Below, in pieces: positions 27,399-50,592 of a stretch of 62,323 bases of DNA. The DNA is from a virus (taxonomy: Duplodnaviria > Caudoviricetes). The stretch covers positions 1 through 62,323 of the IMG/VR virus record IMGVR_UViG_3300042898_000840; one strand, 5' to 3'. The translations under genes were made by a program, and so were the position numbers. The notes below the pieces were generated by a model. It made no database searches. It was not told the DNA's origin and worked only from the letters and a program-made list of their open reading frames with translations. The first letter of the stretch is position 1. Every line of letters begins with the position of its first letter.

Positions 27399-28106
27399 TT
27401 AATGGTTTAATATGTAAATTGATTTGTTTGATTTTGTTCCTAGTGTACCACTACACAAACCACATTTGCTACATGTAGACTTGAATCCTGCTTCCTTGCT
27501 TGCAGGACAATTGACAATTCCATCAATCTTTGATTCCGTAGCAATGTAACTTCTATATCCTTTCATCCTTGCGATAATCTCTCCGTTGATGTCATGCGTA
27601 GATGCCATGAAGAATTCACTTAATTCGTTACGCATCCATTGGTGAGTATATCCAGTCCAATTGTCTGCTACATTTGTCATTTCCTGAATCATCTTAATTG
27701 GGTGCAATGATGGTTCACCATACGTTCCGAATCGAACGAATGTTGATTTTGACATTTCTCTTGCTTTAAGAATCATATCGTACTTGAATGTAGGTACATT
27801 TTCGAATGTTGGATATTCTTTCGCAATACTTTTTAGCATGCTGATAAACCCAACATACTGATTGAATTTGTGCGTATAACATTTTCCGAATTCATTGAAT
27901 GGACAATCCAAGCAATTTGTATCAGCGTTACTGAAGAATGTCTTCATTCCATCATTCGTTCCATTGGCAATCAATTCATACTGTTTTCTGCTGAATGTGT
28001 ACGTTTGGACAATTTTTCTTTTCTTGTCTGATTCAATCTTATTGTTGCTAGTGGTTGACTTGCTGATTACTTGCAATGTGTCACCAATTCTAAAAATTAG
28101 TTTCAT
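27399..28106 (-). CDS. Cys-rich, putative Fe-S / radical-SAM-like phage protein
   Basis: CLDCP..CY, VRFGTYGEP, WTGYTHQW, FMAS, CPAS...CSKCGLC. Confidence 0.6.
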   Translation of the reverse strand: MKLIFRIGDTLQVISKSTTSNNKIESDKKRKIVQTYTFSRKQYELIANGTNDGMKTFFSNADTNCLDCPFNEFGKCYTHKFNQYVGFISMLKSIAKEYPTFENVPTFKYDMILKAREMSKSTFVRFGTYGEPSLHPIKMIQEMTNVADNWTGYTHQWMRNELSEFFMASTHDINGEIIARMKGYRSYIATESKIDGIVNCPASKEAGFKSTCSKCGLCSGTLGTKSNKSIYILNH

Positions 28107-28119
28107 GGTTATTTGTTTT

Positions 28120-28175
28120 GGTTAATATGCCGTATCACTACGGCATTTCGGATCATAAATCCTCATCAGTTAACC
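28120..28175 (-). ncRNA. Type I hammerhead ribozyme (HH-A)
   Basis: GGTTAA CTGATGA GGAT-ttatg-ATCC GAAA TGCCGTA-gtga-TACGGCA TA^TTAACC: full core, three perfect stems, AUA triplet. Confidence 0.92.
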
Positions 28176-28393
28176 TTTATTTCATTAATTATTTTGATCT
28201 CATATTCTAAATTATAAGACTGTACCGCGATCCCTCCACCATATTGTTTGTTATGGAATTTTCGACCGCTAATTTTTTTAGCTAGTTTTAAAGCGGTTGG
28301 ATAATCATCCGCTAATTGTAAGAAATGAAAAACATAACGTGGGTTTCCGTTTACGTCATTGTTTACTCTTGTAAAATCTTCTTTTGTTATCAT
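28166..28393 (-). CDS. Small early protein; its stop codon lies within the hammerhead core
   Basis: NNDVNGNPRYV...KQYGGGI; ends KVN-TGA. Confidence 0.75.
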   Translation of the reverse strand: MITKEDFTRVNNDVNGNPRYVFHFLQLADDYPTALKLAKKISGRKFHNKQYGGGIAVQSYNLEYEIKIINEIKVN

Positions 28394-28729: not shown

Positions 28730-28745
28730 GGCTAAAAATTTAATT

Positions 28746-28799
28746 GGTTAATACGGCAATCGCTTGCCGTTTCATCCATTTAGGAATCATCAGTTAACC
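28746..28799 (-). ncRNA. Type I hammerhead ribozyme (HH-B)
   Basis: GGTTAA CTGATGA T-TCC-taaat-GGA-T GAAA CGGCAA-gcga-TTGCCG TA^TTAACC; GUA triplet; U-U at the base of stem II. Confidence 0.88.
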
Positions 28800-28972
28800 T
28801 GTGAAGAAAATAAAATTGAAGAAATAAAGCCCATAAAACCACCACCATAAAACAAGGTAGCCATTATTGGCTCATGGTTAATGTATAGACTTTCGTTTGA
28901 AAATGTTACTACTGCTGAAGTAATTGAAGTAATCCCAAAGATCACCATCATTAATAAAAAAATTGTTTTCAT
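28790..28972 (-). CDS. Small membrane protein, first early gene; its stop codon lies within the hammerhead core
   Basis: Two hydrophobic segments; ends QVN-TGA. Confidence 0.7.
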   Translation of the reverse strand: MKTIFLLMMVIFGITSITSAVVTFSNESLYINHEPIMATLFYGGGFMGFISSILFSSQVN

Positions 28973-28995
28973 GGTTATTTATTTAATTGGTTAGT

Positions 28996-29041
28996 GCTTC
29001 CGTTCGTATCGCTCGAATAAAATTGTCATTCAATCGGAAGC
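28996..29041 (-). ncRNA. Candidate three-way-junction RNA (tRNA-elbow-like)
   Basis: GCTTCCG [ATTG-aatga-CAAT] ttta [TTCG-agcgata-CGAA] CGGAAGC. Confidence 0.6.
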
Positions 29042-29418
29042 TATAATTGTTAACTTGCATCACGCTTATATAGATGGAATCAAACCACCACAAGTTATTA
29101 AAGTATTATGTAATTTTCTTTGGTATATTATCGAAACAATAGAGAAAATTTAGGTCTATTGTACCAAGGTCTTCCACCTCTAGAGTAAGCCTATAAGCAA
29201 CTATTTTACACTCTATCTTTTTTTTGCAATCTTTTTCACTTGCCGAGAATCAATGAACGTTTACTTTAACAAAGGTCTAAACTATTTTTGACATTTCCTA
29301 ACTTTTTAACAAATTTTTGTTGAAAGCTACTTAATCAATCTATACTCATCGTACGTACATATTAAGTCTTTTAACATTGCTAGTAAGGATTTGTATTGTT
29401 TAGCTCGTTTGCTTATAA

Positions 29419-29765: not shown

Positions 29766-29845
29766 AGGTCGATTGGTCGGCATGTCAGCGCGCGTATGTT
29801 GGTGTCAATAACGTAATGCATGGAGACGCGTATACATCAACTAAC

Positions 29846-29897
29846 GGCAGGCAGGCAGACACACACGAACGGCAGGCAGGCAGGCAGGCAGGCAGGC
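29846..29897 (+). repeat. (GGCA)n microsatellite in two blocks (3 and 6 units)
   Basis: Direct reading. Confidence 0.9.
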
Positions 29898-30038
29898 TAG
29901 CAAAAAGCTGAAAATCTCAGCCGAAAAAACCAAATTGCACACCCCCCAGTCAATTTTTAGATCGTTTCCCCCGCGCGCAATTTTTCGTGGAATGGGGGTA
30001 TTACCCAAAAATTCCGTATATTTACCAAAAAAAAAGAT

Positions 30039-49482: not shown

Positions 49483-50592
49483 ATGGAAGGTGAATTTAAA
49501 GTAAGGGCAGTAGATTTCGAAGAAAAGTCTGTTGCTGAAGTAGAAGAACAGCTACTTAAAGAGCACGAAGAAAAGACAGGTTTAGTCTCTACAGATGAAC
49601 CACCTGTTGACAAGGTGGTTATTGAAGATACACCACCTGTAGTTGAACCTCAAGAGATTGAGATAGACGACAATAAAGTTCTTTCATATATTGGAAAAAG
49701 ATATAATAAAGAGATTGGTAATCTTGATGAATTATTTGAACAACGTTCAAGTAATGAGGATTTAGATCCAGAGGTTGCCACATATCTTAAATATAAAAAA
49801 GAGACTGGTCGTGGAATTGAGGACTTTATGAAGTTAAATAAAGACTATGATTCTATGGATCAGGATCAATTGCTTTTTGAGTATCGTAAGAATCAAGATA
49901 AAGATCTTGATATTGACGATATTAAATTCGATCTTGAAACTCAGTTTGGATATGATTCAGACTATGAAGATGAGAAAGAGATTAAGAAAAAGCAGTTGGC
50001 TAAGAAAAAAGAACTCACTAAAGCTAAGGATTATTTCAACAGCTTGAAAGAACAGTATAAAGTTCCTCTTGAGTCAAGAGAATCTTTTGTTCCTCAAGAA
50101 GAGAAAGAGACCTATGAGGCTTATAAGAGTTATAAACAAGCTACAACTCAAGCGGAGGAAGAGCAAGTGAAAAGGTCAAAGTATTTTGCTGACAAAACTT
50201 CTGAGTTATTCTCTGAAAAGTTCGAAGGTTTCGGATTTAGTTTAGATGAGAATAAAAAATTAGTTTACAAACCAGCAGAATCACCAGACTTACTGAAAGA
50301 GCAATCAAATCTTCAGAACTTTGTATCAAAGTTTTTGAATGATGAAGGTTATCTAAAGGATGCTGAATCTTTCCATCGTGCTATTGCAGTGGCTTCGAAT
50401 CCAGAGAAGTTTGCCAAATTCTTCTACGAGAAGGGTATGTCAGATGCGGTTGGCGATGTTGCTAAAGAGTCTAAAAATATAGACATGACTCGGCAAGCAA
50501 CACAAGTTCCACCAGCTCAAGGTTTCAGAGTTACAGCTATAGATGACGATCGTGGCAACAGATTAGTAATTAGAAACAAAAACAAAAACTAA
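49483..50592 (+). CDS. Probable capsid scaffolding protein
   Basis: Acidic, coiled-coil; immediately before the capsid gene. Confidence 0.7.
   Translation: MEGEFKVRAVDFEEKSVAEVEEQLLKEHEEKTGLVSTDEPPVDKVVIEDTPPVVEPQEIEIDDNKVLSYIGKRYNKEIGNLDELFEQRSSNEDLDPEVATYLKYKKETGRGIEDFMKLNKDYDSMDQDQLLFEYRKNQDKDLDIDDIKFDLETQFGYDSDYEDEKEIKKKQLAKKKELTKAKDYFNSLKEQYKVPLESRESFVPQEEKETYEAYKSYKQATTQAEEEQVKRSKYFADKTSELFSEKFEGFGFSLDENKKLVYKPAESPDLLKEQSNLQNFVSKFLNDEGYLKDAESFHRAIAVASNPEKFAKFFYEKGMSDAVGDVAKESKNIDMTRQATQVPPAQGFRVTAIDDDRGNRLVIRNKNKN

Follow-up and report, generated by a model that had tools for sequence, protein, structure and literature searches.

Positions 28120..28175 (minus strand) of the IMG/VR virus record IMGVR_UViG_3300042898_000840 hold a complete type I hammerhead ribozyme, all parts of which can be read directly in the sequence. 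We refer to this element as HH-A. The record is that of a complete virus with direct terminal repeats and crAss-like features; it was analyzed over its full 62,323 bases, and we call this whole stretch the window. HH-A lies in the leftward early operon of the phage, between an open reading frame (ORF) for a 75-amino-acid (aa) TreK-like protein and an ORF for a 235-aa cysteine-rich (Cys-rich) protein. We consider it probable that HH-A is a functional ribozyme that cuts the early polycistronic RNA at this point and thereby insulates neighboring cistrons from one another.

Read 5′ to 3′ on the minus strand, from 28175 to 28120, HH-A opens with the 5′ strand of stem I (GGUUAA, 28170..28175), whose partner occupies 28125-28120, and continues with the core segment C3 to A9 (CUGAUGA, 28163..28169). 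There follow stem II with its loop (28150..28162), in which the 4-base-pair (bp) helix GGAU/AUCC (28162-28159 and 28153-28150) is capped by the five-base loop UUAUG (28158-28154); the core bases G12, A13, and A14 (GAA, 28147..28149); and the stem III hairpin AUGCCGU-AGUGAU-ACGGCAU (28127..28146), with strands at 28146-28140 and 28133-28127 and closed by the pair A15.1-U16.1. Stem III contains 7 bp, to which RNAfold adds an eighth, A-U pair that leaves a GUGA loop. Next come A17 (28126) and a U (28125), between which the scissile bond is predicted to lie (28125..28126), and the element ends with the 3′ strand of stem I (UUAACC, 28120..28125); after cleavage, the downstream mRNA would begin with these six bases. 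The numbering used to place A17 and the cut is the standard hammerhead convention. Because stem I is open-ended (6 bp), the ribozyme is of type I; stem II is closed at the core by G10.1-C11.1.

The hammerhead consensus consists of C3 U4 G5 A6 N7 G8 A9, G12 A13 A14, an A15.1-U16.1 pair, and any base other than G at position 17 (H17). HH-A agrees with it at each point, having CUGAUGA, GAA, the pair A28146-U28127, and an A rather than a G at position 17. The same consensus is given in the methods of Perreault et al. (PMC3088659). All three helices (6, 4, and 7 to 8 bp) are Watson-Crick throughout, and the pairs adjoining the core are G-C (10.1-11.1), U-A (1.1-2.1), and A-U (15.1-16.1), with no mispair among them; a mispair directly beside the core is a reason for rejection according to the rule stated in that report (PMC3088659). 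The conserved element slightly exceeds these 56 nucleotides (nt), since an unpaired A at 28176 and an AA at 28119-28118 belong to it, and the match to the covariance model R1 (see below; model positions 1-58) spans 28117..28178 on the minus strand. A preliminary description of this DNA had proposed a canonical and complete core, an AUA cleavage triplet, and a cut between 28126 and 28125, all of which agree with sequence, fold, family membership, and covariation; the perfect 6-, 4-, and 7-bp stems that it reported are likewise borne out by the minus-strand sequence and by RNAfold, and its placement of the element upstream of a Cys-rich gene holds, the ORF in question starting at 28106.

The predicted fold of the region is that of the hammerhead. 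The minimum free energy (MFE) structure of a 76-nt stretch is exactly the three-way junction (−19.1 kcal/mol, z = −4.45, RNAfold), none of 200 shuffles of this stretch folds as well, and when 241 nt are folded, the MFE and centroid structures both retain the hammerhead junction. A descriptor scan of the window returns a single site at the 6/4/7-bp level, namely, HH-A itself. Such a site arises in 1 of 200 dinucleotide shuffles of the window, as against 61 of 200 for a loose 4/3/3-bp site. Scanning the window for type II and type III hammerheads gave nothing beyond one loose 4/3/3-bp type-II-like site (50424..50307), which lies within a coding region and was taken as chance. R1, a covariance model built from 49 equal-length family members, all of them from other contigs, scores HH-A at 55.5 bits (E = 5.7e-11, window search with filters off); the best background match in the window reaches 13.2 bits (E = 0.93).

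The family to which HH-A belongs was recovered from IMG/VR with two pattern scans, and the fractions that we give for either scan are among the matches listed. The first scan kept stem I fixed and left loop II free (GGTTAACTGATGA..GAAA..TTAACC); it matched at least 119 IMG/VR stretches, with about one chance match expected by an estimate made by hand, without a tool. Outside the close relatives, these stretches supply 129 distinct sequences, in which stems II and III differ nearly everywhere with their pairing kept. The second scan left all stems free, prescribing no more than the core and three bases of loop II, and matched at least 120 stretches. Its new loci contribute 102 distinct complete sites, 101 of which have a 4-bp stem II and 98 of which form full hammerheads whose stem I has exactly six pairs; here, stem I is itself variable and covarying (e.g., GUCAAA/UUUGAC, GAACAA/UUGUUC, and GGCUAA/UUAGUC).

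Covariation in homologs, a check that had been proposed beforehand, extends to all three stems. In an alignment of 49 sequences, 13 of the 16 pairs show changes on both sides, a count that has to be read in light of how the rows were obtained: they were chosen by a descriptor that demands pairing and are thus 99.6% paired by construction, such that only two-sided changes constitute evidence. Two-sided changes affect all six stem I pairs across the family. The alignment has a covariation score of 0.767, versus 0.163 ± 0.015 for shuffled alignments (0 of 500 shuffles reach the observed value), and slid controls score at most 0.104.

Core positions were also compared in copies drawn with the model instead of a pattern. 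Across 100 loci (948,400 bases), R1 returned 155 matches at E ≤ 0.001, of which 150 were aligned and 137 were distinct; 35 of the latter lie outside the first pattern. Within these 35 model-only copies, the core heptamer is CUGACGA (21 copies), CUGAUGA (12), CUGAAGA (1), or CCGAUGA (1), both GAA and A15.1-U16.1 are present in every copy, and position 17 is C in 29 and A in 6 and is never G. Position N7 is the one free position of the hammerhead core; variation that is almost confined to N7 is, therefore, the signature of selection for catalysis. The family as a whole is a large and very abundant phage sub-family of type I hammerheads, as judged by sequence comparison, with a 6-bp stem I, flanking As, and a U-N-A-R-U loop II.

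The window itself contains a second member. HH-B (28743..28802, minus strand; R1 score of 54.7 bits, E = 9.1e-11) lies about 620 nt from HH-A on the same strand, with four small ORFs between the two. Its hammerhead (28799..28746) is composed of GGUUAA (28799-28794), CUGAUGA (28793-28787), a stem II segment of the form U-UCC-UAAAU-GGA-U, GAA, a stem III hairpin with a GCGA loop (ACGGCAA-GCGA-UUGCCGU), A17 (28752), and UUAACC (28751-28746). HH-B is placed in the same manner as HH-A, overlapping the stop codon of a 60-aa membrane-like ORF and preceding a 36-aa ORF. It has a U.U opposition at 10.1/11.1, by which it fails the mispair rule of Perreault et al., and its MFE structure is a competing extended hairpin, not the hammerhead. 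A stem II made of a U, 3 bp, a loop, 3 bp, and a U recurs with other stems in loci L025 and L133 and in genome G004, and this form of stem II may be a tolerated variant.

Copies in relatives of the phage show the same pairing under different sequences. The Cys-rich protein occurs at 13 IMG/VR loci with 47 to 94% identity; a hammerhead lies upstream of its gene in L001, L002, and (spanning the contig end) L005/G004 and is absent there from L003, L004, and L006-L013. Over the whole records of five relatives, R1 finds 2, 1, 1, 1, and 0 copies. At the HH-A position of G001, stem III is the same and stem II reads GUCU/AGAC instead of GGAU/AUCC, which amounts to two compensatory pair changes and points to selection for pairing since the two phages diverged. 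At the same position of L001, stem III is ACGUGAC/GUCACGU, with 5 of its 7 pairs changed on both sides and pairing kept. In the G004 copy (L241, G004:63339-63400), stem II resembles that of HH-B (UUCC..GGAU) and stem III is that of HH-A, which looks as though ribozyme copies had recombined within the core. At the HH-B position, stems II and III differ completely from one to the next of four genomes, on cores that read CUGAUGA, CUGACGA, or CUGAAGA. The gene upstream of HH-A is different in all four genomes having a copy at the HH-A position, and the downstream gene is constant, so that the ribozyme travels with the 5′ end of the downstream gene.

The preliminary description had regarded HH-A as minimal, with no obvious contact between stem I and loop II. 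This view is countered by three regularities of the family: the fixed length of stem I, its conserved flanks, and the conserved loop II. Stem II segments of 13 bases occur in 81 of the 129 first-scan sequences, and 76 of these 81 have 4 bp and a 5-nt loop, whose first position is always U (76 of 76), whose third is A in 69, and whose fifth is U in 70. Among the 98 second-scan hammerheads with a six-pair stem I, an A precedes stem I in 97 and follows it in all 98, with AA following in 75. Taken together, these three regularities have the look of an extended, tertiary-stabilized hammerhead. In extended hammerheads, as described in the relevant parts of two reports, loop II docks on stem I (PMC3088659, PMC6155905), and in HH-A, loop II may plausibly touch the end of stem I. 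Mutual information between loop II and the flanks yields nothing beyond one weak signal (0.127 bits), and given this lack of covariation, a Watson-Crick pseudoknot is not indicated. HH-A retains the flanking As as well as U1 and A3 of loop II. Its loop, UUAUG, is one of the rarer forms (3 of 200, with G5 in 4 of the 76 loops of standard length) but recurs elsewhere in the family with different stems, and its A17 is the rarer alternative among the first-scan sequences (36 of 129, versus 93 of 129 for C17). Because both the loop and A17 are the rarer forms, HH-A may be slower than the family consensus.

The position of HH-A relative to genes is also that of the family. From the predicted cut to the ATG of the Cys-rich gene (28106) there are 19 nt, the family median being 23 nt, and an ATG-initiated ORF of at least 30 codons begins 10 to 40 nt past the cut in 178 of 210 members, versus 36 of 210 random positions. 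On the other side, 204 of 210 members have an upstream open frame whose end falls in the interval from 40 nt ahead of stem I to the last base of the ribozyme, and most of these ends lie no more than 10 nt from where stem I begins. In the window, the upstream TreK-like ORF (28166..28393, minus strand; Pfam PF24229 Phage_TreK, E = 3.9e-20) has the 3′ end GTT AAC TGA, so that its last codons and stop are also stem I and the start of the core; the last three codons and the stop (TGA, 28168-28166) lie inside the hammerhead. Downstream, the Cys-rich ORF (27399..28106, minus strand; phrog_2554, E = 8e-28) is separated from stem I by an A-rich leader, AAAACAAAUAACC (28107..28119, minus strand), which has no Shine-Dalgarno sequence.

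Together with its flanking AA, the 3′ strand of stem I forms a leader motif, TAACCAA, that is over-represented in this phage. The motif occurs 27 times in the window, versus an expectation of 13.4 ± 4.0 (0 of 100 shuffles reach 27), and it also heads early genes that have no hammerhead (28972, 26920, 26385, and 19921). A common style of leader, in which TAACCAA is followed by an A/T-rich run and then by A(A/G)CC abutting the ATG, again with no Shine-Dalgarno sequence, is found at the minus-strand ORFs starting at 28972, 28729, 28106, 27109, 26920, 26385, 26158, and 19921. At the first-scan loci, occurrences of TAACCAA that are not preceded by a hammerhead have an ATG-initiated ORF within 5 to 40 nt in 146 of 369 cases; of the controls, the reverse complement gives 57 of 514 and one other word gives 67 of 280. 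This pattern fits a ribozyme that gives the downstream gene the standard leader.

We propose the following course of events. During synthesis of the polycistronic early RNA, the element of 56 nt would fold into its three-way junction and would then cut its own backbone after A17 (28126/28125). The upstream, TreK-like message would keep the ribozyme body as a structured 3′ end bearing a 2′,3′-cyclic phosphate, and the downstream, Cys-rich message would begin 5′-OH-UUAACCAAAACAAAUAACC-AUG, that is, with a short, unstructured, A-rich leader of the same kind as that on other early genes of this phage. The ribozyme would, in this manner, act as a natural insulator that separates neighboring cistrons and fixes the downstream 5′ end, whatever gene lies upstream. 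Cleavage by HH-A, the loop II contact, and an effect on mRNA stability or translation are all predictions that we infer from sequence. In synthetic insulators of the RiboJ type, a hammerhead upstream of the ribosome-binding region removes variable upstream RNA and leaves a constant 5′ leader. The RiboJ type, a type III ribozyme, was engineered from a plant satellite RNA, and the likeness of HH-A to it would be one of function only.

Another structured RNA lies before the first early gene. At 29041..28994 (minus strand), a 48-nt three-way-junction fold consists of P1 (GCUUCCG/CGGAAGC), P2 (AUUG-AAUGA-CAAU), a UUUUA joiner, and P3 (UUCG-AGCGAUA-CGAA), after which come AC and the UAACCAA leader. 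Searched against Rfam, this junction RNA returned nothing at E ≤ 10. An initial pattern with 14 specified bases yielded 118 stretches, almost all of them chance matches with one new true instance, and was set aside; a tight pattern run on IMG/VR yielded 28 stretches with 25 distinct junction-RNA sequences, among them the window copy and copies from loci already included in the comparison. Copies, one per genome, include those in L063, L077, L098, L121, and L361-L384, and across copies the P2 loop reads RRWGA and the P3 loop AGCGAUA. RNAalifold recovers 15 pairs, 8 of which show two-sided changes, and a covariance model, R2, detects one copy each in the window (87.4 bits) and in three of five relatives, with a weak match in a fourth (23.7 bits). 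In other phages of the clade, the junction RNA stands immediately before the 36-aa gene that follows HH-B in the window; in G006, the product of this gene shares 61% identity (E = 1e-16) with its counterpart here. Such an arrangement suggests that the 60-aa gene and HH-B were inserted together at this point, separating the junction RNA from the 36-aa gene, and that the ribozyme restored the leader.

The region 29050-29090 (minus strand), immediately upstream of the junction RNA, contains a tRNA T-arm-like sequence, GGUGGUUUGAUUCCAUC, followed by a box, TATATAAGCG.GATGCAAGTT, that is conserved in several related phages (GGTTCGATTCCATCTATATAAGCGAGGTGCAAGT). This region may represent a tRNA remnant, an early promoter, or both.

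These arrangements allow a broader, and in our estimation doubtful, reading, under which the hammerhead makes up half of a system, built from RNA alone, that supplies all early messages of this phage lineage with the leader (U)UAACCAA...A(A/G)CC-AUG. Under such a system, the stem I sequence GGUUAA/UUAACC may be frozen across more than 100 contigs, with stems II and III drifting, because its 3′ strand is the leader; an inserted gene cassette may bring along a hammerhead that regenerates the leader for the gene that it displaces; and the primary transcript may receive its leader from the junction RNA at 29041..28994, which ends AC|UAACCAA. In its own right, the junction RNA might act in processing or represent a self-cleaving motif of a new kind.

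Several results weigh against a functional, insulating hammerhead at this locus. Among the RNA runs on record, none contains the stretch at a useful level; the nearest, a set of contigs only presumed to be RNA, matches 5% of the sampled words. The Rfam hammerhead models (RF00163, RF00008, and RF02275-RF02277) have no match in the whole window at gathering thresholds, a 701-nt search gives no hammerhead match at E ≤ 10, and an 86-nt search returns only a mis-registered RF00008 match of 11.8 bits, versus a cut-off of 48.5. The same is true at gathering thresholds for six other loci that have at least 19 family copies (0 matches); the curated Rfam models do not cover this sub-type, and their silence says nothing against the identity of HH-A as a hammerhead. 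HH-A also combines minority features of the family, having UUAUG as its loop, A17 instead of C17, and U-A instead of C-G at 15.2/16.2. Hammerheads are missing from L003 and L004, whose Cys-rich proteins are 94% and 90% identical to that of the window, which marks the ribozyme as dispensable for the downstream gene, and the more distant genome G005 has zero copies. In L001, stem II is weakened by two A.C oppositions. To these may be added the pairing-based choice of alignment rows described above and the fact that the role in insulation or stability is inferred from position only.

Three other explanations have to be set against this evidence. We leave next to no probability to a chance resemblance to the hammerhead consensus that has no biological meaning. 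Loose hammerhead-like sites do turn up in almost a third of the window shuffles, and Rfam offers no significant match, but a site with helices as long as those of HH-A is attained by a single shuffle, a model built independently of the window assigns HH-A a highly significant score, a second copy lies 620 nt away, compensatory changes are seen in the relatives' copies at the same position, and family members number in the hundreds; within the reach of sequence analysis, this explanation is already refuted. It is unlikely, to our minds, that HH-A is instead a decaying or very slow copy that descends from an active hammerhead and persists as a stable cluster of hairpins at the 3′ end of the TreK-like gene, where it might, for instance, block 3′ exonucleases. 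Such decay would agree with the minority loop II and A17, with the close relatives that do without the element, with the damaged stem II of L001, and with HH-B, in which a U.U adjoins the core and a competing extended hairpin is the MFE structure. Against it, every catalytic position of HH-A is intact and its three helices are perfect, the UUAUG loop and A17 are both found elsewhere in the family (the loop with different stems), the hammerhead remains the MFE structure even in 241 nt, and the compensated stem II of G001, next to an identical stem III, argues that pairing has been under selection since divergence.

We regard as very unlikely a role at the level of DNA or of RNA joining, in which the shared stem I serves as a recombination joint for gene cassettes or an excised fragment is re-ligated to a circle. 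What speaks for it is that GGUUAA/UUAACC forms stem I in both window copies and in the first-scan stretches, with stems II and III varying freely, that a different gene precedes HH-A in each of four genomes, and that the G004 copy mixes an HH-B-like stem II with the stem III of HH-A. Circular or spliced products are raised as a possibility in the discussion of Perreault et al. (PMC3088659), who report there that they could not detect such products. Moreover, conservation of the core argues that cleavage itself is selected, and in other lineages, copies within a single contig have different stem I sequences, such that a shared stem I is not a rule of the family. A functional hammerhead that cuts the early transcript is the explanation that we prefer.

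Placed among known systems, HH-A joins an already known kind, the clustered phage hammerhead, by its core, helices, and topology. Hammerheads in phage intergenic regions have been known since 2011 (Perreault et al. 2011, PMC3088659). The sections of that report that deal with clustered prophage hammerheads describe elements that flank single genes and cleave both in vitro and in Escherichia coli, and they propose that clustered hammerheads process long phage transcripts to gene-length mRNAs. HH-A is like them in its canonical core, in its clustered copies between small, nonconserved phage genes, and in its proposed role. What was found here is a pair of same-strand copies flanking small genes in a phage with a terminase, a portal, a muzzle protein, and a primase. 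The examples stressed in those sections (PMC3088659) are mostly of type II with a pseudoknot, whereas HH-A is of type I, with an open 6-bp stem I, unpaired A flanks, and a loop II of the U-N-A-R-U family. Type I hammerheads are, according to the parts of two reports that treat their distribution, typical of bacteria and phages (PMC13725137, PMC6155905), and the role of phage hammerheads is still called open in passages of reviews (PMC6765202, PMC6155905).

Two other type I systems invite comparison. The extended type I hammerhead of Schistosoma (RF00163, Hammerhead_1), as summarized in PMC6155905, has the same topology as HH-A, with an open stem I and capped stems II and III, and the same core; loop II would be expected to dock on stem I at about six pairs from the core. 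In the Schistosoma type described there, stem I continues past the internal bulge that receives loop II, whereas the stem I of HH-A ends after 6 bp, and the would-be partners of its loop II are single-stranded As on each side; nor does HH-A match RF00163 at E ≤ 10. The hammerheads in the 5′ untranslated regions (UTRs) and intergenic regions of chrysoviruses and fusariviruses, as far as they are presented in PMC13725137, are likewise of type I, have a long helix III, and fill a short intergenic UTR, with a distance from cut to start codon of 7 nt in the example given, versus 19 nt for HH-A. Their hosts are eukaryotic RNA viruses, and the portion of the report concerned presents them as ribozymes without the usual loop-loop contacts (PMC13725137); HH-A, by comparison, is encoded in the DNA of a phage and has the conserved loop II of its family.

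Beyond the terminase (large subunit) and portal, the phage encodes a crAss-type muzzle protein with a BACON domain, a BT4734-like primase, a GroEL-like chaperonin, and an ORF of 3031 aa. Genes are directed leftward from about 29.0 kb down to 9.3 kb and rightward from 30.0 kb onward. The host is probably a member of the Bacteroidota, given the leaders without Shine-Dalgarno sequences, the BACON domain, and the BT4734-like primase. A DNA search of named phage genomes at roughly 65 to 70% identity returned only a 93-base match to an Aeromonas phage, within the TreK-like gene. The Cys-rich protein has no sequence relative in Pfam, NCBIfam, or PDB; phrog_2554 is a PHROG with no assigned function, and Cys-rich relatives in mycobacteriophages and other phages are annotated as hypothetical proteins.

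Some further features of the window were recorded along the way. Inside the TreK-like ORF (28268-28318, minus strand), there is a weak match to the SAM-II riboswitch (24.2 bits versus a cut-off of 44; E = 0.034 in the 701-nt search) that is most likely due to chance. At 18501-18560 (minus strand), Rfam identifies a tRNA of 60 nt (42.9 bits) that has acceptor, D, and T arms and a single base in place of the anticodon arm, and about 70 nt downstream (approximately 18340-18432, minus strand) lies a second tRNA-like sequence with a long insert at the site of the anticodon arm and an encoded ACCA end; ARAGORN reports zero tRNAs in the window. Within the noncoding gap of about 1 kb between the divergent early and rightward blocks, positions 29845-29900 (minus strand) form a run of CTGC/CTGCC repeats (ctgcctgcctgcctgcc...).

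For the family as a whole, the locus documents a gap in Rfam and adds no new principle; since the Rfam models miss this sub-family, annotation pipelines can be expected to under-count phage ribozymes. For the biology of these phages, the locus provides two natural comparisons. Among relatives with Cys-rich proteins that are 90 to 94% identical, the downstream gene is found both with the ribozyme and without it, and the 36-aa gene can follow either a hammerhead or another kind of structured RNA. The testable idea that the locus offers is that the ribozyme may exist to hand the downstream gene the standard leader.

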